A stretch of DNA of 64,000 nt from Escherichia coli (lineage in GTDB: Bacteria; Pseudomonadota; Gammaproteobacteria; Enterobacterales; Enterobacteriaceae), in NCBI GenBank assembly GCA_005400705.1, contig GCA_005400705.1_4079.1; one strand, written 5' to 3'. The translations under genes and the position numbers were made by a program. The notes under the pieces were generated by a model that saw nothing but the letters and a program-made list of their open reading frames with translations, searched no databases and was not told the DNA's origin. Positions 13,464-41,337 of this stretch are shown here, piece after piece (positions within the stretch are counted from its first letter, which is position 1; the number at the start of each line of letters is the position of its first letter).

Positions 13464-13958
13464 ATGACATTACAGAGTTCATTGGAAAAAGCAAAGAAGA
13501 TTCATGAGTACATGAATATGGCAAAAGAAGGTTCAGTTTACGGTGTTTTCAAAGACACAAGTACTCAATATTATGTGCCGGATAACCTCCTTTATAATGA
13601 CTGCTCAGATACAGAAACGTGCGTACTGGATACAGAAACGTGCATACTAGATACCGACCCTAATGATTATGAATGTTTCATTGATATGCATAATGAGTAC
13701 ATGGTCTATATTAATGATGCAGATATTACCATATACAGTACTGACTGCGATTCCGATGACATTATAATTCCGAGTGAAGTACTAGAAGGTCAGTGGGATA
13801 GTGAAGAGTATTACTTCCAACAAAGTACTGTTTACGATGATGAAGTACTTGAAGTATTAGTTATTATGTGGTACTTTAAAAGTATTGGTTCTGGGAACTT
13901 CTATTTCGATTACAGATACGTAACGAAAACTGTAGATAACGGTATTAACAGGGGTTGA
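13464..13958 (+). CDS. family B protein (subfamily B2)
   Basis: N-terminus MTLQSSLEKAKKIHEYM; core WDSEEYYFQQSTVYDDEVLEVLVIMWYFKS. Confidence 0.7.
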   Translation: MTLQSSLEKAKKIHEYMNMAKEGSVYGVFKDTSTQYYVPDNLLYNDCSDTETCVLDTETCILDTDPNDYECFIDMHNEYMVYINDADITIYSTDCDSDDIIIPSEVLEGQWDSEEYYFQQSTVYDDEVLEVLVIMWYFKSIGSGNFYFDYRYVTKTVDNGINRG

Positions 13959-13959
13959 A

Positions 13960-14430
13960 ATGAGTTTAGAAAGAGCATTAGAGATTGCGAAGTTAATTGA
14001 TTTATGCAGCAAAGAAATTGTATCAAATTGTCTCAATGGATATCTATTCAAGGAAGGTAAATCATATTGTCGAATGATATACGATGACAGTAGTGAATAT
14101 ATCCATATGTATGAAGAAAACTTAGATGATTCTGACATAGTACTCACAGGATGTGATGTTAATTTGGAAGATAATTACATGTACTTCTGCCGTGATGCTG
14201 ATATTTTAATCCAAGATTCATTAATTCAAACAGGTGCACCAGAGGTATATCTTCCGTATTCAGTACTGGATAATAACTGGGGTAGTGAAGATTACTATTT
14301 CCAGCAGAGTACTATATATAATGAAGATATACTTGACAAACTTGTTATTTCTTGGTACTTTCATAACACGGATTATAGTAGCTTCTACATAGACTTGGAT
14401 CTACTAAGAGTACTTAAAGAGGATATATGA
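13960..14430 (+). CDS. family B protein (subfamily B2)
   Basis: N-terminus MSLERALEIAK; core EDYYFQQSTIYNED. Confidence 0.7.
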   Translation: MSLERALEIAKLIDLCSKEIVSNCLNGYLFKEGKSYCRMIYDDSSEYIHMYEENLDDSDIVLTGCDVNLEDNYMYFCRDADILIQDSLIQTGAPEVYLPYSVLDNNWGSEDYYFQQSTIYNEDILDKLVISWYFHNTDYSSFYIDLDLLRVLKEDI

Positions 14431-14869: not shown

Positions 14870-15358
14870 ATGTCATTACAAAGTGCATTGAAAGAAGCAA
14901 AGAAAATTCATGAGTACATGATTATGGTACAGGAAGGTTCAGTACCAGGTGTATACAAAACATCAGATACGGAATTCTTCGTTAAGGATAGAGATGATTA
15001 TGACGAATCAGAGGTATGTGCAGAAACATTAGTACTGCACACTGATACTGGTGACAGTGATAACTGTGAATATCATATGTACAACCAGTACATTAGTTAT
15101 TGCCGTAATGAAGATATTACCATCTACAACACAGATAGTGATGCTGATGACACTATCATTCCTTATTCAGTACTGGAAGGTCAGTGGGATAGTGAAGAAT
15201 ATTACTTCCAGAATAGTACTATCTACAATGAAGAAGAACTGGATGTTATTGTGATTATGTGGTATTTCAAAAGTATTGACTCCAGTAGTTTCTATTTTGA
15301 TTATGAATATGTAGAGAATACAGTAGGAGAAGGTAATGTCATTACAAAGTGCTCTTGA
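14870..15358 (+). CDS. family B protein (subfamily B2)
   Basis: N-terminus MSLQSALKEAKKIHEYM; core EEYYFQNSTIYNEE. Confidence 0.7.
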   Translation: MSLQSALKEAKKIHEYMIMVQEGSVPGVYKTSDTEFFVKDRDDYDESEVCAETLVLHTDTGDSDNCEYHMYNQYISYCRNEDITIYNTDSDADDTIIPYSVLEGQWDSEEYYFQNSTIYNEEELDVIVIMWYFKSIDSSSFYFDYEYVENTVGEGNVITKCS

Positions 15359-35245: not shown

Positions 35246-35262
35246 GACAAATGATAAGTTAA

Positions 35263-35307
35263 TGATATAATATAAGGTGACAACATAATATGTTAGTCAC
35301 CTTTTTT
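35263..35307 (+). terminator. rho-independent terminator preceded by a TGATATAAT box
   Basis: TGATATAAT 35263-35271, then hairpin GGTGACAACAT-aat-ATGTTAGTCACC 35276-35301 and T6 35302-35307. Confidence 0.65.
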
Positions 35308-35830
35308 AATCCTGAAAGGTTCCCATAAGGAAATGATTAAAAGCCTAATCCACTCGAAAATGTAGAGGGTAGATGAGTAGTCCTTTCAGTACGAACAGCA
35401 GATGAAACCCGTTAGATGATGGCATAGTTTGAACCACTCACGGCAATGCGGCTGTATAAAGAACTCCAATAGGATAAAGAGAGTTCCTCGATAGACATAT
35501 AAGGATCGCACCTTACCAATTATCTAAGGGAGATTTCATAAGAAATATGCGGTCGGAATTATACAATATAGTTGCGTCCAAATTTTGTGAAATCAAATAC
35601 AAGTACTGGTCATATGGTATTTGTATTATGTGTCGGGATGTTTAAGACCGACGACCGTTGCTACAAGAACCGCGATAGAGAGAAACAGAGCAACCCGCTT
35701 TCGTCTCGTAAGAGAATTCGTGATATGAACTATGTGAAGGCCACCAGCGTCAAATTTTTTTGTTCTTTCCCCTGCGGGGGGATGAAATATGCTCAAGCAA
35801 ACCCCGTCAATATTAATTAAAAGAAAATAG
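35308..35830 (+). ncRNA. candidate structured non-coding RNA or regulatory island (GC-enriched, ORF-free)
   Basis: About 520 bp with no tiling ORF in a genome that is otherwise saturated with coding sequence; visibly higher GC; several local hairpins (GTCGG..CCGAC near 35632-35652, GTTGCT..AGCAAC 35658-35693, CCCCTGCGGGGGG 35770-35782); strand uncertain. Confidence 0.3.
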
Positions 35831-35847
35831 TACTTGTAGAATTAGAC

Positions 35848-36468
35848 ATGCGTAGCATGATAATTCTACTGATGTTGATGCAATCAACGTCACGTATATT
35901 CATTGATGTTTCCATAGGAATAATGATGGCATTTATTAGAAAAGAAAAAACTGTTACTTATAAAACTTTGAATTTTGATGATTGCATTAATCAATCACAA
36001 GACGAAGATATCTTTACTGGATATGTGGTTATTAAAGAAAAAGGATGCATTTCTTATATAAAGGAATTACAAAATGGAATTGAAGTGACTTCAGTTAAAT
36101 TACTTCCTACTCAAAAACCAACAATATCAAAAGCCCAGTATGGTAATTATTTTGAAGAAAGATATAGTAATAATTCAATAAGTGTTAAGGCTCATATTAT
36201 TAAAGGAGAACTAGAAGGAGAATATAGAAAATACAACCCACAAGGAAAATGTGTTTGGGTTAAATACTTCAATTCAGGATATGATGTAACATCTGAAATT
36301 ATAGAATTCTTGGGTTTAAAATGTACCCCTGAGACTATTCATGATTACAAGTTCAATACTGAAGAAGAGTTTAATCTGATGATGCGTTACGGTTCACATT
36401 TTAAATTTTTATATGAATATAACATTGACAGTAGTACTTTTGATAAGATAGTACACAACTGTCTCTAA
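35848..36468 (+). CDS. hypothetical protein
   Basis: 206-aa ORF; several in-frame ATGs so start uncertain. Confidence 0.5.
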   Translation: MRSMIILLMLMQSTSRIFIDVSIGIMMAFIRKEKTVTYKTLNFDDCINQSQDEDIFTGYVVIKEKGCISYIKELQNGIEVTSVKLLPTQKPTISKAQYGNYFEERYSNNSISVKAHIIKGELEGEYRKYNPQGKCVWVKYFNSGYDVTSEIIEFLGLKCTPETIHDYKFNTEEEFNLMMRYGSHFKFLYEYNIDSSTFDKIVHNCL

Positions 36469-36484
36469 CAAAAGGAATTATATA

Positions 36485-37006
36485 ATGTCGAAGAAGGATG
36501 CTTCGAAAAAACATTCAGTACATTTCAGTACTGGAAAAGATAACTGGACAACTCCCAAAGATTTCTTTGAAGATTTGGATGAGTTATGGGGATTTACACT
36601 TGATGCTGCTTGTGTTGATGAGACTGCATTGTGTGATAATTTTTTCACTCCAGAAGATGATTCACTATCACAGGATTGGGGAAATAATATAGTTTGGTTG
36701 AATCCACCATACAGTGACTTGAAAACTTGGTTATCTAAAGCAGTAGATGCATATAATAACGGGGCAACTGTAGTTATTCTTGTACCCTCAAGAACCGACA
36801 CAATTGCTTTTCAGGATTATGCTGCTAAAATATGTGATTGTATTTGTTTTATTAAGGGAAGATTACGATTTGGTATACCAGAAGAACCCGATAAGAAAAC
36901 AGATTCAGCACCATTTCCTTCGTGTCTGATAGTACTGGATAAGTACTTAACCACTGCTAAAATCAATTATCTTAAATCTCTTGGGTTGGTGATGAAGAAT
37001 TTATGA
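36485..37006 (+). CDS. dam: DNA N6-adenine methyltransferase (phage Dam-type)
   Basis: NPPY catalytic motif in VWLNPPYSDLKTWLSKA, with the upstream WTTPKDFFEDLDE context typical of small phage Dam enzymes. Confidence 0.7.
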   Translation: MSKKDASKKHSVHFSTGKDNWTTPKDFFEDLDELWGFTLDAACVDETALCDNFFTPEDDSLSQDWGNNIVWLNPPYSDLKTWLSKAVDAYNNGATVVILVPSRTDTIAFQDYAAKICDCICFIKGRLRFGIPEEPDKKTDSAPFPSCLIVLDKYLTTAKINYLKSLGLVMKNL

Positions 37007-37536
37007 AAGAAACATGTGTATTAACGTTTGGTCGTATTAATCCTGTACATCGTGGACATGGTTTAGTTTTTGAAAAGGCCAAAACATTACAAGAACAGTA
37101 CAATGCTGATTTAAAAATATATCTAAGCACCAGTACTGACAATATAAAAAACCCACTCCCACCTGAACTAAAAATGTATTATACAGAGGGATTCTATCCT
37201 TCAGTGCAAGAGAACATCTACACAGAAGACAATCTGTTTGATATAATGAGAGAACTGGATGGAAAGTACTTAGATGTTCTTTTCATATGTGGTTCTGACC
37301 GTATTGATTCTTTTCAAAAAACTCTTGACATGTACAATGGTAAGTTGTATAATTTTTGTAGTATAAAAGCAATTCAGGCAGGTATTGACCGTAATGTAAG
37401 TCAATATAGCTCAACACAAATGCGTAACTTCGCAAAAAATGAAGATTTTGATAGTTTTCGTGAGTTTTTACCTGGAAATGACGAGGACTTAAAAATACAA
37501 TTATTTGAAGACGTTATAAAATACATGAGGAAATAA
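37003..37536 (+). CDS. HxGH-family nucleotidyltransferase (NadM-like NMN adenylyltransferase candidate)
   Basis: N-terminal FGRINPVHRGH matches the (H/T)xGH motif of archaeal-type NMNAT and cytidylyltransferases; ATGA overlap with dam. Confidence 0.5.
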   Translation: MKETCVLTFGRINPVHRGHGLVFEKAKTLQEQYNADLKIYLSTSTDNIKNPLPPELKMYYTEGFYPSVQENIYTEDNLFDIMRELDGKYLDVLFICGSDRIDSFQKTLDMYNGKLYNFCSIKAIQAGIDRNVSQYSSTQMRNFAKNEDFDSFREFLPGNDEDLKIQLFEDVIKYMRK

Positions 37537-37538
37537 TT

Positions 37539-37832
37539 ATGTCAGTACTGTTCAAAACCAATCCAGTACTTTGGGATCAAAATGAGCAATCAGGATTTCG
37601 TTCCATCCATGTTGAATACAAAGGTAATACTGTAGTTGCAATTATTGCTAACAAAACTCTAGGAAACTGGACTGCACAGGTTGTTCCTATGGGATATTCT
37701 TACACATCTGATGAGGTTCAATTCCTGGCTGAACTATATCGTCAAGTGCCGTTTATCATTAATGTACTAGAAGGTAATGATACATTATCACATGAAGATG
37801 TGATTAATTTTCTTGGAAACTTACATGTGTGA
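37539..37832 (+). CDS. hypothetical protein
   Basis: 97-aa tiling ORF. Confidence 0.55.
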   Translation: MSVLFKTNPVLWDQNEQSGFRSIHVEYKGNTVVAIIANKTLGNWTAQVVPMGYSYTSDEVQFLAELYRQVPFIINVLEGNDTLSHEDVINFLGNLHV

Positions 37833-38112
37833 TGAAATAAATCTTACAGGATATTTTTTACAAGAATCAATGATTAAATTTAGTGATAAATTTTCAGTAC
37901 TGGATGGTATCGAAATGTGGCATGTCAAACCACTGTTCCACACTTTCAGTAAAGAGCACAAAATGTTATTGACTGAAGCCAGTAAATCAAATAACATATG
38001 TGAAATCAAAATTGGTGTAAATGTCTATAAAGGGATGGTTATCTTTTTTGACAATAACAGCAACTACTTTTATATTGTTAAGGAGCATTACGTTGACAAA
38101 TACAAATACTAA
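37825..38112 (+). CDS. hypothetical protein
   Basis: ATG 37825 overlapping upstream TGA (ATGTGTGA). Confidence 0.5.
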   Translation: MCDEINLTGYFLQESMIKFSDKFSVLDGIEMWHVKPLFHTFSKEHKMLLTEASKSNNICEIKIGVNVYKGMVIFFDNNSNYFYIVKEHYVDKYKY

Positions 38113-38707
38113 TACATATTTCCGTTATCTTCGCTTAGGTCTTTCCCTACGTCCGATCCGTGGAAAGTGCGATTCACTCGCTGACCTTGACTATGCATAT
38201 GCATTACATCATGAAGGTGTACAGTATGTATTGGGTGATTATGGTGAATTTGAAGAAACAAATGACAGTACTGGAATTAATGCTGGTGTAGAAAATCTTA
38301 ACAACATTGCTAACAGTTCTCGCCATGACATTGTGTTACAGATTCAAAACTTTATTGAGCAGCACACAGGTAAACGTGTTTGGTGCTATGTCGGTACGGA
38401 TGCACAAATGTCAATTTCATTCGGTAACGATGAAGGATATGTTGCACAGCTTATTATGGATTTTGAATCTGAAGAGAAGTTTTTAGAATTCAAAGAAAAG
38501 ATTATTCAGTCACTTGTTGATATGGGTATCCCCGAAGATAAAATGCCAGAAGTCCAAAACATTGATGAATTTGTTTTGATTCCATCTGATGAGAAATATG
38601 ATGCAATGTTTACTGCTCTTAATATTCCAGGAGTTATTGTGGAGTACTTTGATGATGGTGATGATAGTATCTATATCGATCTAGATGACGATGACGACGA
38701 TGAATAA
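38093..38707 (+). CDS. hypothetical protein with poly-acidic C-terminal tail
   Basis: No ATG after upstream stop; start placed at in-frame TTG 38093, 7 nt after AAGGAG 38080-38085; C-terminus YFDDGDDSIYIDLDDDDDDE. Confidence 0.45.
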   Translation: MTNTNTNTYFRYLRLGLSLRPIRGKCDSLADLDYAYALHHEGVQYVLGDYGEFEETNDSTGINAGVENLNNIANSSRHDIVLQIQNFIEQHTGKRVWCYVGTDAQMSISFGNDEGYVAQLIMDFESEEKFLEFKEKIIQSLVDMGIPEDKMPEVQNIDEFVLIPSDEKYDAMFTALNIPGVIVEYFDDGDDSIYIDLDDDDDDE

Positions 38708-38713
38708 TGTACA

Positions 38714-38741
38714 TAGCCCGACATAAGTTCGGGCTATTTTT
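38714..38741 (+). terminator. rho-independent terminator
   Basis: Hairpin ATAGCCCGA-cataagt-TCGGGCTAT followed by TTTTT. Confidence 0.75.
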
Positions 38742-38753
38742 GTAAGGGGATAT

Positions 38754-39029
38754 ATGAATTATAAAGTTCTACAATATACATACAGTGTTTTGTTTGATTT
38801 ACATCACAATGGAAGATATCTCAATACAATACGAGAAAACACATTCACTCATACTATCTGGATTAATCACTTAATAATGATACGTGAATATTTTGTTAAT
38901 AGTGAGATAATCATTCGTGGTAAAAAACAGAAGATAGAACAAGTTAATAGTTTTGGTGGTAAATTAGTACTATCATTTATAGATAGTAATACTAATGAAA
39001 GATATAGTATAGATTTGGTGGACATATGA
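38754..39029 (+). CDS. family C small protein
   Basis: N-terminus MNYKVLQYTYSVLFDL. Confidence 0.6.
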   Translation: MNYKVLQYTYSVLFDLHHNGRYLNTIRENTFTHTIWINHLIMIREYFVNSEIIIRGKKQKIEQVNSFGGKLVLSFIDSNTNERYSIDLVDI

Positions 39030-39292
39030 ATTATAAAGATTTCCTACTAACATACAAGATTATTCGAGATTTAGCACACGACAATGATAGCCCTAGTCTA
39101 GAAGACACATGCACTGAAATGATTCATACAATTCGTGGTAAGATTAAAAAAAAATTCAGTACTGTTATTATTGGTGATGACCATGCAGAATTTTCTGATA
39201 TAATCATTAGACGTGATGGTAAAGTTGAGGTTCAGTACTACACTGATTTTGGATTTACCAGTATTCCGTTGGAGATATTCCCTTGGGATTAA
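39026..39292 (+). CDS. family C small protein
   Basis: N-terminus MNYKDFLLTYKIIRDL; ATGA overlap. Confidence 0.6.
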   Translation: MNYKDFLLTYKIIRDLAHDNDSPSLEDTCTEMIHTIRGKIKKKFSTVIIGDDHAEFSDIIIRRDGKVEVQYYTDFGFTSIPLEIFPWD

Positions 39293-39594
39293 ATTTAAAT
39301 GATATACAATTCACTTATAAGATCCTATATGATTTGTATGATTTATACCTTGTTAGTAACAAAATAGGTTCACATAACTCATCCAAAGAACAACCATTTA
39401 TTGATTTATATATTGAGTACTTAGATTCAGTAGGTGAATATATAAAAAAGAATTACAGTACTTTTAACGATGGAAATGATATATTCGAGTTCTCTGGAGT
39501 TAAATCATACAATGGGATTATCCATGTTGAATTTCTTGAAATAACCGATAGGGGATTTATCGAGATTAAAGTTGTGAAGTTGGTGAATTTATAA
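39283..39594 (+). CDS. family C small protein
   Basis: LNDIQFTYKILYDLYD; apparent TTG start after GGAG. Confidence 0.5.
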   Translation: MGLNLNDIQFTYKILYDLYDLYLVSNKIGSHNSSKEQPFIDLYIEYLDSVGEYIKKNYSTFNDGNDIFEFSGVKSYNGIIHVEFLEITDRGFIEIKVVKLVNL

Positions 39595-39604
39595 GAGGTT
39601 ACAT

Positions 39605-39916
39605 ATGTTATTAAATGATATACAATTCACATACAAATTTTTGTATATCCAATACGCTACGGTTGATGCTGGAGAATATCTCTACGGTGAAATCTATCGT
39701 TCGGTATGGATAAAGTTTTTGGATGAATTACATGAATATTACCATGATTTGTGTATAGTTCGTGATAATAAAATATACAAATTCCGCGATATTGTTAGTC
39801 ATAGCGGTAAGCTACGATTGGAATTAAGTACTGATAGTGATGTTGATTGGATTGGTGTAAATTTACTGGAGTTGGAGAATGAAAAACAACTTAAAGGAAA
39901 TACAAGTATTTTATAA
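39605..39916 (+). CDS. family C small protein
   Basis: N-terminus MLLNDIQFTYKFLYIQY; RBS GAGG. Confidence 0.6.
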   Translation: MLLNDIQFTYKFLYIQYATVDAGEYLYGEIYRSVWIKFLDELHEYYHDLCIVRDNKIYKFRDIVSHSGKLRLELSTDSDVDWIGVNLLELENEKQLKGNTSIL

Positions 39917-40163
39917 ATTCTTATACTTGTCATATGTAAAAGATGAGTACTATGAAAGTGTGTATTATTTTTTATGGCAACATTACCGTACTATAGTAAG
40001 AGATTTATATATAGGAAAATCTATCATATCCAATGGTGAAAAATGTATATGTACTGATGTTGTTAGTTTTAATGGTTCTTTAACACTGTGTTTCAGATGC
40101 GATAATAATAGTGGGTCATTTTCATTAAACGTATATCAGTTAGAAGGAATAAATTTTGAATAA
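39879..40163 (+). CDS. family C small protein
   Basis: EIQVFYKFLYLSY. Confidence 0.55.
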   Translation: MKNNLKEIQVFYKFLYLSYVKDEYYESVYYFLWQHYRTIVRDLYIGKSIISNGEKCICTDVVSFNGSLTLCFRCDNNSGSFSLNVYQLEGINFE

Positions 40164-40356
40164 ATGTCCATATTGTAACAGTACTCAATTAGCTCGTTTC
40201 CGTTTAGATTCAGACTGGGCGACTGGTGCTGGTGATTTCTTCCCTATTAATGATGATGCGGAATACACCGAAGAACAGCACAAAGATTTTGATAAATCAT
40301 GGCGACCTGACATTGAGTGCATTTATTGCCTTAATTGTGAGCGTGTTCATGACTAA
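40156..40356 (+). CDS. small zinc-ribbon protein
   Basis: Two CxxC pairs: CPYCNS and CIYCLNCERV. Confidence 0.55.
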   Translation: MNKCPYCNSTQLARFRLDSDWATGAGDFFPINDDAEYTEEQHKDFDKSWRPDIECIYCLNCERVHD

Positions 40357-40612
40357 AGCTGAACTAATAGTTCATACATATAAAATGATATCAAGTACTA
40401 AGTTATCATATAGTGAAGATAATCCAGTACTGGATTATTTTGTTGAATTATTGAAAGAGCATTATATTGGTAAATCACTGATTCTTAATAATATTAATTT
40501 CACGGTAAAGGATGTAGCACCTGGAAAAAACGTACTAATAGTATGTGTTACTTCATCTGATAACCCAGTATACCCAATATCAATAATTTTTGAGATATTA
40601 GGAGATTTATGA
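40349..40612 (+). CDS. family C-like small protein
   Basis: ATG 40349 overlapping upstream stop; MTKAELIVHTYKMI ... EHYIGKSLI. Confidence 0.5.
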   Translation: MTKAELIVHTYKMISSTKLSYSEDNPVLDYFVELLKEHYIGKSLILNNINFTVKDVAPGKNVLIVCVTSSDNPVYPISIIFEILGDL

Positions 40613-40899
40613 ATATCATTTTAATGCAGAAAACATATGCTATATTGGTGAAAGATTATTCCATTACTTTCGATTCACAAGAAAGTGCTCTACATAACCT
40701 ATACAAAAACGTAACACAAGAATACAGAAATATGTTTTCTGACTTAGTAGTAGGAAGGTATTTCAGTACTAGAAAATACCCAAAACTTCAAATAGTTGAT
40801 GTTTCTTTTTATTTCAATGGTCATATTACTATTCATAGTTTAGACCAAGATTCAACAACGTACTTAAACTTTTCATTTGATGAGGTAACATTTTTATGA
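40609..40899 (+). CDS. family C small protein
   Basis: MNIILMQKTYAILVKDY; ATGA overlap. Confidence 0.6.
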   Translation: MNIILMQKTYAILVKDYSITFDSQESALHNLYKNVTQEYRNMFSDLVVGRYFSTRKYPKLQIVDVSFYFNGHITIHSLDQDSTTYLNFSFDEVTFL

Positions 40900-41072
40900 G
40901 AACAGTATTTTTTATCTGGAGTCTTTTTTCATTGGCAGTACTGACAGTATGTGGGATTTGTTTCCTTTCATCAATTAATACTTGGTATATCAATTTACTA
41001 TTTCCATTTGTCTGTGTTGGTTTAGGGTTTACTTTGCATAGTGTATGTAAGGATTACAATGAGAACAAATGA
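40896..41072 (+). CDS. small membrane protein (58 aa, absent from ORF track)
   Basis: ATG 40896 in ATGA overlap with upstream stop; two hydrophobic segments (FFIWSLFSLAVLTVCGICFL, LLFPFVCVGLGF). Confidence 0.45.
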   Translation: MRTVFFIWSLFSLAVLTVCGICFLSSINTWYINLLFPFVCVGLGFTLHSVCKDYNENK

Positions 41073-41337
41073 AGTACTTATTGCTGAAACAATGAAGATG
41101 ATTTACAATATCACGTCAGCACAGAATATGCCCTATCCAACTAAGTCTTTATTGAGGACTGTGTATCTGGGGATAGTACAGGAGTACTACAAATCCAAGC
41201 ACCGAAGCATTATTAGTGTTTATCGTGATTATGAAAGGATTCGTATTTTATTCTGGAACAAGAATCGAGTACGTTCTGAATGTGACCTAGTGGACTTTAA
41301 ATTAGAGAATCTTTATTGCTATAAACAGGGACAATAG
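41059..41337 (+). CDS. family A-like small protein
   Basis: ATG 41059 after AAGGA; motif YLGIVQEYY. Confidence 0.5.
   Translation: MRTNEVLIAETMKMIYNITSAQNMPYPTKSLLRTVYLGIVQEYYKSKHRSIISVYRDYERIRILFWNKNRVRSECDLVDFKLENLYCYKQGQ

Follow-up and report, generated by a model that had tools for sequence, protein, structure and literature searches.

A conserved acidic protein of 121Q/RaK2-like jumbo phages, translated from a TTG codon and ending in a disordered poly-acidic tail: a possible polyanionic decoy

The locus considered here poses two linked questions: where the translation of a small, strongly acidic phage protein begins, and what such a protein might do for the phage that encodes it. It lies in a stretch of 64,000 nucleotides from an Escherichia coli assembly (hereafter the window), which is the sequence of an Asteriusvirus (121Q/phAPEC6-like) jumbo phage. 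Over the 3 kb around the gene, identity is 99.5% to Escherichia phage vB_EcoM_phAPEC6 and 99.4% to phage 121Q, Asteriusvirus (121Q, phAPEC6) being a group of jumbo myoviruses of about 350 kb. A first-pass annotation of the window had singled out this gene for the poly-acidic end of its product and for its non-canonical start, and had raised the possibilities of a DNA mimic comparable to Ocr or ArdA and of an SSB-like partner-binding tail. The features that define the gene model are as follows:

38093-38707, + strand: CDS of the acidic protein, ortholog of 121Q gp421, 204 aa plus a TAA stop codon at 38705-38707, assigned to phrog_15575
38080-38085, + strand: Shine-Dalgarno sequence AAGGAG
38093-38095, + strand: TTG start codon, 20 nt within the preceding ORF
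38021-38023, + strand: in-frame upstream ATG inside ORF 37813-38112, opening a 228-aa ORF and rejected as start

Exactly the same coordinates are annotated as 121Q gp421 and as G17_00504, each a "hypothetical protein" with an identical CDS. The product matches phrog_15575, a family of unknown function, over its full length (E 2.6e-93, residues 1-200 against profile positions 1-193 of 193), and the same family is matched by distant relatives as well. By tblastn the protein is present in 70 phage records from nine host genera; each genome has a single copy, and every one of these phages is a RaK2-like jumbo phage. The direct orthologs, namely 121Q gp421 (YP_009102008.1), RaK2 ORF451 (YP_007007606.1), GAP32_071, CBB gp075, and Serratia BF_0066, share the length, start position, and operon slot of the window protein, at 28-100% identity; their annotation is everywhere only that of a hypothetical protein, and the annotated start codon varies between records. 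A literature search by the protein's accession numbers returned no mention, and the RaK2 paper does not mention gp451. By sequence comparison, the gene is a genuine, conserved, and uncharacterised member of the 121Q/RaK2-like jumbo phage gene set.

The first question can be answered from the relatives. Translation from a TTG preceded by a strong AAGGAG, as originally proposed, holds up: the frame 38093-38707 is open, the Shine-Dalgarno sequence lies 7 nt 5' of the TTG and recurs there, identically or as a near variant, in A4, Turkey5, vB_Ec-M-J, RaK2, and Munch, and the TTG itself is retained in four diverged Asteriusviruses. The accompanying statement that no in-frame ATG follows the upstream stop is mistaken, as the ATG at 38021-38023 is the first start codon in the open frame; the statement is true only if the stop is taken to be that of the preceding gene, at 38112. 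This ATG was nevertheless ruled out as the start, being absent from vB_Ec-M-J, A4, and Turkey5 and adding a 24-codon extension that is unconserved. Comparison of the relatives settles the TTG as the correct start, because some of them lack the ATG or carry an upstream stop (in Turkey5, in frame and 4 codons 5' of the same TTG), because other genera have a conventional codon at the homologous position (ATG in RaK2, GAP32, CBB, and BF, GTG in Munch), and because amino-acid conservation begins exactly at the TTG codon position. Public records hold three different gene models for this gene. The upstream ATG is used by some automatic calls (e.g., P0001), some metagenome gene calls give 226 aa, and the phAPEC6 record gives a 158-aa model from an internal TTG (L47), which was discarded since the conserved residues 9-46 precede L47; the present analysis fixes the right start codon amid these conflicting models. 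TTG starts are not rare in the window (15 of 142 ORFs under the longest-ORF rule), and the 20-nt overlap makes translational coupling to the preceding ORF plausible. Sigma-70-like promoter matches occur in the window at chance level (47 found versus 43.7 expected), and one candidate promoter at 38048-38076, with 11 of 12 positions matched, was dropped as unconserved in A4.

The genomic setting of the gene is that of a conserved operon, the other members of which are listed below:

35848-36468, + strand: hypothetical gene, first in the conserved order
36485-37006, + strand: Dam-type N6-adenine methyltransferase, same operon (PF05869, E 7.4e-32)
37003-37536, + strand: HxGH (HIGH-superfamily) nucleotidyltransferase, annotated as cytidylyltransferase (phrog_3041, E 8.5e-58)
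37539-38112, + strand: two small ORFs, 37539-37832 and 37813-38112 (phrog_14956 and phrog_38105, function unknown; 121Q gp419 and gp420)
38713-38742, + strand: intrinsic terminator with a 9-bp stem, 5 GC pairs, and a T run, found by a terminator scan and also annotated in phage G17

Every gene in the region is on the + strand, and the order hypothetical gene, Dam, nucleotidyltransferase, small ORF(s), and acidic-protein gene is invariable, the synteny being kept in RaK2, Munch, GAP32, CBB, Serratia BF, Yersinia fHe-Yen9-04, Xanthomonas XbC2, and Erwinia Kaldavass. The acidic-protein gene is the last cistron of this operon, with the terminator next to it. It had been placed just after the Dam/nucleotidyltransferase pair, which is only approximate, given that the two small ORFs lie between. 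The nucleotidyltransferase has only weak matches to other profiles (CTP_transf_like, NMN-adenylyltransferase) and no sequence match in the PDB. The purified-virion proteome of phAPEC6 lists 62 proteins, and the ortholog gp390c is not among them (PMC7247149, Table 1), which argues for a non-structural role.

Upstream of the operon, a 600-nt ORF-poor gap holds a separate element at 35335-35818, a candidate structured RNA of 484 nt that occurs in several copies. Its nucleotide identity is 70-76% to phages whose acidic-protein homologs are only 28-45% identical. RNAalifold folds the element into 74 pairs and 16 helices, including a long-range closing helix, and compensatory double changes affect 25 pairs, compared with 9.2 ± 2.2 in shuffles (0 of 500 reach 25) and 4-9 in slid controls; the G-U pairs place the RNA on the + strand. 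Rfam 15 gave no match to the element even at E<=10, and ARAGORN found no tRNA or tmRNA in it. An exact conserved motif was matched in IMG/VR at 1-4 copies per RaK2-like contig, with three copies in 121Q, and the paralogous copies, about 70% identical, sit in different, syntenically conserved gaps. The element would seem to represent a family of large structured RNAs not described before, and this candidate may matter more than the acidic protein itself.

To return to the protein, its sequence divides into the following parts:

38096-38116, + strand: (ACAAAT)x3.5 hexanucleotide repeat encoding the N-terminal TNTNTNT (Tandem Repeats Finder), a segment that is variable among relatives
38117-38167, + strand: Arg-rich N-terminal motif YFRYLRLGLSLRPIRGK, residues 9-25, net charge +5, modelled within the fold (pLDDT 89-92 in the deeper model)
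38117-38644, + strand: conserved alpha/beta core, residues 9-184, net charge -18 (alignments; AlphaFold2 model)
38645-38704, + strand: predicted disordered poly-acidic tail YFDDGDDSIYIDLDDDDDDE, residues 185-204, net charge -12 (pLDDT 38-57 in both models)

That the product ends in this tail and is acidic overall, as first noted, was borne out, the whole protein having a pI of 4.06, 43 D/E against 13 K/R, and a net charge of -30, or about -0.15 per residue. It ranks second in acidity among the 142 non-overlapping ORFs of the window, for which the median pI is 5.42; several other proteins of the same window are, however, just as acidic, so that a low pI is nothing unusual for this phage and in itself counts against reading much into it. 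The tail is the more distinctive part. Residues 185-204 comprise 12 D/E in 20 positions (60%) with no K, R, or H, and they form the most D/E-dense 20-mer of the window, the next best having 9. When the protein's own residues were shuffled, a 20-mer with at least 12 D/E arose anywhere in 0.47% of cases and at the C-terminus in 0.006% (6 of 100,000). Between genera the sequence of the tail is unconserved and its acidic composition recurs: nearly all RaK2-like members have a tail, 6-25 residues long and containing as many as 17 D/E (in some only 6-8 residues, e.g., FADDDE), and 29 of 30 of them have a C-terminal net charge of -3 or below, the sole non-acidic end being that of CBB, which has no acidic tail and closes with the six residues NIGDSK. 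Parts of the tail are semi-conserved, namely an initial F-D-D-D that directly follows the last strand and, within the tail, a hydrophobic patch (IYIDL, EWLDL, FIEIDM), and the length of the poly-D run varies even among near-identical Asteriusviruses (DDDDE, DDDDDDE, DDDDDDDE).

The fold was predicted twice, first with AlphaFold from an 18-sequence alignment (pLDDT 79) and then with AlphaFold2 from a deeper, 45-sequence alignment that included distant relatives (pLDDT 88.7, pTM 0.82). Both models give a single compact alpha/beta domain over residues of about 7-184, with predicted helices at 7-14, 60-73, 77-92, 127-143, and 167-173 and six or seven strands, and in both the residues from 185 onward are of low confidence and hence predicted to be disordered. 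Foldseek against the PDB found no significant match for either model (best E 0.56 for the pLDDT 79 model and 0.69 for the 88.7 model, TM about 0.2); among the best 50 matches listed per search there was no Ocr, ArdA, SSB, or OB-fold chain and none with E<0.5, and against BFVD the first model retrieved only orthologs. A Pfam scan at E<=1, which included the SSB, Ocr, and ArdA models, matched no family, and an NCBIfam scan gave no match. PDB sequence searches with three family profiles found nothing in the core; their sole match at E<0.1, 2fiu_A with the A3 profile, aligns to the N-terminal extension of distant relatives and was set aside, as was a lone and spurious Cas8c match (E 0.006) in a PADLOC scan. 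A profile or fold match to Ocr or ArdA, sought with Pfam and Foldseek, was accordingly not found, nor was homology to any non-mimic enzyme. The suspicion of a frameshifted fusion can be dismissed as well, for the ORF is single and collinear in every genus, all relatives have one collinear domain, and the model of the window protein is one compact domain (pTM 0.82). Judged by these models, the fold is one without a solved relative, and the protein is unrelated in sequence or fold to Ocr, ArdA, and the OB-fold SSBs. This lack of homology says little about DNA mimicry, because DNA mimics share no fold.

An exhaustive profile search retrieved 43 relatives and a second iteration 36 more, their sources being huge-phage-like contigs with lengths between 100 kb and over 1 Mb, along with a few bacterial assemblies; a RanBP1-domain protein, P0063, which would have been a eukaryotic match, proved to be a false positive. 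The core residues common to the family are G16, G24, V43, Y45, H78, W97, Q105, F110, G111, G115, L120, and F173, of which Y45, H78, W97, and Q105 are nearly invariant over about 86 members, and many distant relatives have an extra N-terminal extension of 60-150 residues. The electrostatic character of the domain differs sharply across the family. Cores of distant relatives (n=56) are near neutral, with a pI of 5-9, and almost all of these proteins are tail-less, whereas RaK2-like cores (n=30) have a net charge of -11 to -22 and a pI of 4.2-4.8, their D+E content being 18.5% versus 12.3% in the distant relatives. In the RaK2-like clade, D/E account for at least 80% of the residues at ten positions, nine of which are mostly non-acidic elsewhere, and the mean net charge of the N-terminal motif is +4.2 in the clade versus +0.8 in distant relatives. 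Six His-rich columns of the distant relatives (window positions 40, 50, 64, 68, 77, and 78) are reduced in the RaK2-like clade to H78 alone, the other five having been lost. Acidic tails were also acquired independently in three distant relatives. As read from these alignments, the acidic core, the Arg-rich N-terminus, and the tail arose within the RaK2-like lineage, and the position-by-position pattern indicates that the acidity is selected there.

What the protein does is best approached through the known systems that it resembles. SPO1 Gp44, of a Bacillus phage, inhibits RNA polymerase with a disordered acidic DNA-mimic segment (PMC8208478). Like it, the window protein combines a small folded domain with a disordered stretch of about 57-60% Asp/Glu without basic residues, in a host-takeover-type phage gene with relatives only among related phages, and residues 185-204 constitute a disordered stretch of more than 50% Asp/Glu lacking basic residues, as in Gp44. 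The two differ in that the acidic stretch of Gp44 is 67 residues long and central and is accompanied by an N-terminal DNA-binding domain, whereas that of the window protein is 20 residues long and C-terminal and adjoins a folded part that is itself strongly acidic, so that the likeness is one of analogy and not of homology. With T7 Ocr and ArdA the protein has in common that they are small, very acidic phage or plasmid proteins, and its gene also stands in a DNA-modification operon; it differs from them in the Pfam and Foldseek results given above. Moreover, the Ocr and ArdA folds are helical, whereas an alpha/beta fold is predicted here.

On these grounds a role as a polyanionic decoy is plausible and is ranked first, if only tentatively, because the acidity is lineage-gained and position-conserved, because the tail is SPO1 Gp44-like, and because this is a non-virion gene in a DNA-modification operon. 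The decoy would be a soluble, non-virion accessory protein, made from the conserved TTG as the final cistron of the Dam/nucleotidyltransferase operon. An older, roughly neutral His-rich domain would have been remodelled in the RaK2-like lineage, losing all but one of its conserved His residues and gaining about ten conserved acidic positions, the Arg-rich N-terminal segment, and the tail. The resulting negative surface and flexible tail may then cover the basic surface with which a host (or phage) protein binds nucleic acids, possible kinds of target being nucleases, nucleoid proteins, and RNA polymerase, and specificity could come from the folded core together with the small hydrophobic patch in the tail. 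The lineage-wide acidity, the ten conserved acidic positions, and the disordered tail with its 60% D/E all speak for such a decoy. Against the tail being essential stand the tail-less CBB, the range in tail length, and the neutrality of the distant relatives. Against the decoy more generally, slippage in a GAY tract would account for the variation in poly-D length no less well than selection, and a ligand or catalytic site is an alternative explanation for the family-wide conservation of Y45, H78, and Q105. The more specific scenario, in which an ancestral His-rich, metal- or ligand-binding domain widespread in huge phages became a new-fold polyanionic decoy directed against a host nucleic-acid-binding defence or nucleoid protein, is in our estimation distinctly unlikely when taken as a whole; if true, it would make the protein a new structural class of DNA/RNA mimic.

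The main rival, a possibility that we regard as doubtful and still worth serious consideration, holds that the core is an enzyme or a small-molecule- or nucleotide-binding domain working with nucleotide, NAD+, or tRNA-repair genes, the tail being only a regulatory or solubility appendage. The near-invariant Y45, H78, W97, and Q105 and the six His-rich columns of the distant relatives, which look like a metal or active site, fit this reading, with the reservation that five of these six columns are gone in the RaK2-like clade and that no enzyme family or fold was matched by Pfam, NCBIfam, PDB profile search, or Foldseek. The gene neighbourhoods, of which at least 12 were inspected around distant relatives, are similarly divided. 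In all RaK2-like phages the HxGH nucleotidyltransferase is a neighbour; an HD_4 hydrolase lies downstream in RaK2, Munch, GAP32, and CBB and reappears alongside a CCA-adding enzyme in L028/L029, contigs that are unrelated; the order Prs, NAMPT, homolog, NADAR is found in L031, NADAR also in L025, NUDIX in L007, and cREC_REC in L032 and L037. Iyer et al. attribute such gene types to jumbo-phage counter-defence systems that centre on NAD+ or on RNA repair (PMC7824862). These neighbours are, however, heterogeneous, none of them being present in most contexts, and other contexts show Kup, MksBEF, PTH2, or nothing recognisable; the window itself has no HD_4 gene, and auxiliary genes are common enough in jumbo phages that the co-occurrence may be chance. 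It is also conceivable, if rather unlikely, that the tail has no role of its own and is a low-complexity extension, produced by replication slippage in an AT-rich genome and tolerated, with the function residing wholly in the core. The absence of a tail in CBB, the spread of tail lengths from 6 to 25 residues, the differing poly-D runs of near-identical Asteriusviruses, the hexanucleotide repeat at the N-terminus too, and the three independent acidic tails of distant relatives all count in favour of this reading; yet an acidic C-terminus is kept by nearly all RaK2-like members down to 28% identity, the F-D-D-D segment and the hydrophobic patch are semi-conserved, and the tail arose together with the acidification of the core.

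The remaining two readings carry less weight. Scaffolds and some internal peptides are very acidic, and a morphogenetic protein, be it an acidic scaffold, an assembly chaperone, or an internal head protein, would suit phages of this group, which have a proteinaceous inner body (PMC7247149); this is nonetheless improbable, given that the ortholog is missing from the 62 phAPEC6 virion proteins and gp451 from the RaK2 paper, that the gene shares its operon with DNA-modification and nucleotide genes, in a setting of small early-type ORFs distant from the structural modules, and that the compact globular model is unlike elongated scaffolds. Least probable of all, to the point of being very hard to credit, is an SSB-like hub whose tail would bring in proteins of replication or recombination, or would vie for them with the SSB tail of the host. 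An acidic tail with embedded hydrophobic residues after a folded domain is similar in outline to the disordered C-tails of E. coli SSB, T7 gp2.5, and T4 gp32. The window protein differs from these SSBs in having no OB fold and no SSB profile match, its alpha/beta model being without a PDB or Pfam counterpart at the thresholds above, and in a core that is acidic rather than DNA-binding and so strongly negative that it would repel DNA. A hydrophobic or aromatic tip of the DDDIPF kind is likewise missing, the window tail ending in DDDDDDE and those of the orthologs in D/E. The phage group, furthermore, has a separate gp32-like SSB, phAPEC6 Gp204 (PMC7247149). The SSB-like part of the first-pass proposal is thus unsupported.

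The analysis leaves a domain family that is now defined and that reaches well beyond the RaK2-like phages. Should the decoy reading prove wrong, the protein would be one more conserved hypothetical protein. Should it be right, the protein would add a new fold to the anti-host mimics of phages, one whose emergence from a neutral ancestor could be traced, and would offer a way into the study of how the RaK2/121Q jumbo phages, which are poorly studied and are being proposed for therapy, take over their hosts.

The 600-nt, ORF-poor gap (35246-35847) that lies upstream of the operon encoding Dam, the nucleotidyltransferase, and gp421 holds a candidate structured RNA element:

35335-35818, + strand, candidate structured RNA element, 484 nt

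Between genera of RaK2-like jumbo phages this element retains 70-76% nucleotide identity, and the gp421 homologs of the phages that share it are just 28-45% identical. The fold predicted by RNAalifold comprises 16 helices and 74 pairs, including a long-range closing helix, with compensatory changes in 25 pairs as compared with 9.2 ± 2.2 in shuffled alignments (0/500) and 4-9 in slid controls. A search of Rfam 15 with the element returned no match, even at E<=10, and its identification as a tRNA or tmRNA was ruled out. The element is multi-copy, with 1-4 motif matches per contig (three in 121Q), its paralogs being ~70% identical and each occupying its own syntenic gap; a short form, which lacks core positions about 199-308, also occurs. 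We consider it a candidate for a new family of large structured noncoding RNAs.

On the opposite side of the operon, directly 3' of the gp421 terminator, we find a run of small genes:

38754-41337, + strand, tandem array of ~8 small ORFs of 85-103 aa

Paralogy among these ORFs is weak but detectable (pairwise identity 24-30%, E down to 1e-7), and a motif like LNDIQFTYKxLY recurs in them. In other genera this position is taken by different small ORFs and a gene for an HD_4 (RelA/SpoT-type HD) hydrolase, which lies 3' of the gp421 ortholog in RaK2, Munch, GAP32, and CBB, and whose start overlaps the gp421-ortholog stop in Munch. No HD_4 gene was found in the 64-kb window. The hydrolase genes that follow gp421 orthologs in three of the retrieved loci are:

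L003 5052-5669, HD_4 hydrolase
L004 3621-4232, HD_4 hydrolase
L005 3839-4483, HD_4 hydrolase

Within and around gp421 itself, two promoter-like matches and one repeat were noted:

37325-37353, + strand, perfect 12/12 sigma-70 consensus match (TTGACA-17-TATAAT) within the nucleotidyltransferase gene
38048-38076, + strand, 11/12 sigma-70-like match ending 4 nt 5' of the gp421 Shine-Dalgarno
38096-38116, + strand, hexanucleotide tandem repeat (ACAAAT)x3.5 encoding the gp421 N-terminal TNTNTNT

Promoter-like matches overall occur at chance level, and the 11/12 site is not conserved in comparison with phage A4. The repeat-encoded N-terminus differs among relatives, which carry TNTNSNT, NINTNT, or ITSNT. 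Other proteins of this phage are as extreme in their acidity as gp421: three paralogs of ~160 aa (40-57% identity) equal or exceed it, with a net charge of -0.13 to -0.16 per residue, and all three lack an acidic tail:

13464-13958, + strand, acidic paralog
13960-14430, + strand, acidic paralog
14870-15358, + strand, acidic paralog

Public records of gp421 orthologs and the nucleotidyltransferase contain several annotation problems: the phAPEC6 ortholog (MK817115 gp390c, L008 2032-2508) is shortened to 158 aa by the use of an internal TTG start, some metagenome gene calls lengthen the ortholog to 226 aa from an upstream ATG, and the nearby nucleotidyltransferase, gene 418 of 121Q (KM507819), is labeled "ribonucleotide reductase A" in GenBank.

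Distant gp421 homologs are also carried by megabase-scale metagenomic contigs:

L035/L036, Ga0495643_0000001 (1,136,430 bp) and Ga0495660_0000003 (1,136,521 bp)
L012 and L018, Ga0308158 contigs (1.86 and 1.46 Mb)

The ~1.136-Mb contig, of which two samples gave assemblies of nearly equal length, is the sole megabase contig inspected through gene calls, and it displays dense small ORFs, mostly on the same strand and without Pfam matches. On an unrelated, GC-rich metagenomic contig of 159 kb, an HD_4 relative and a CCA-adding enzyme (L028 1358-1948, L029 3854-4588 and 4619-5872) are encoded upstream of a distant homolog. A further locus comes from a bacterial assembly:

L031 2833-7364, Novimethylophilus kurashikiensis NZ_BDOQ01000010, genes for Prs, NAMPT, a distant gp421 homolog, and a NADAR-domain protein

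Here the homolog lies between NAMPT, itself preceded by Prs, and the NADAR-domain gene, and the nearest phage NAMPT is 52% identical; at a second distant-homolog locus (L025, 1134-1610) NADAR likewise occurs within about 2.5 kb. The L031 locus is a phage-like NAD+ salvage and ADP-ribose module within a bacterial assembly.
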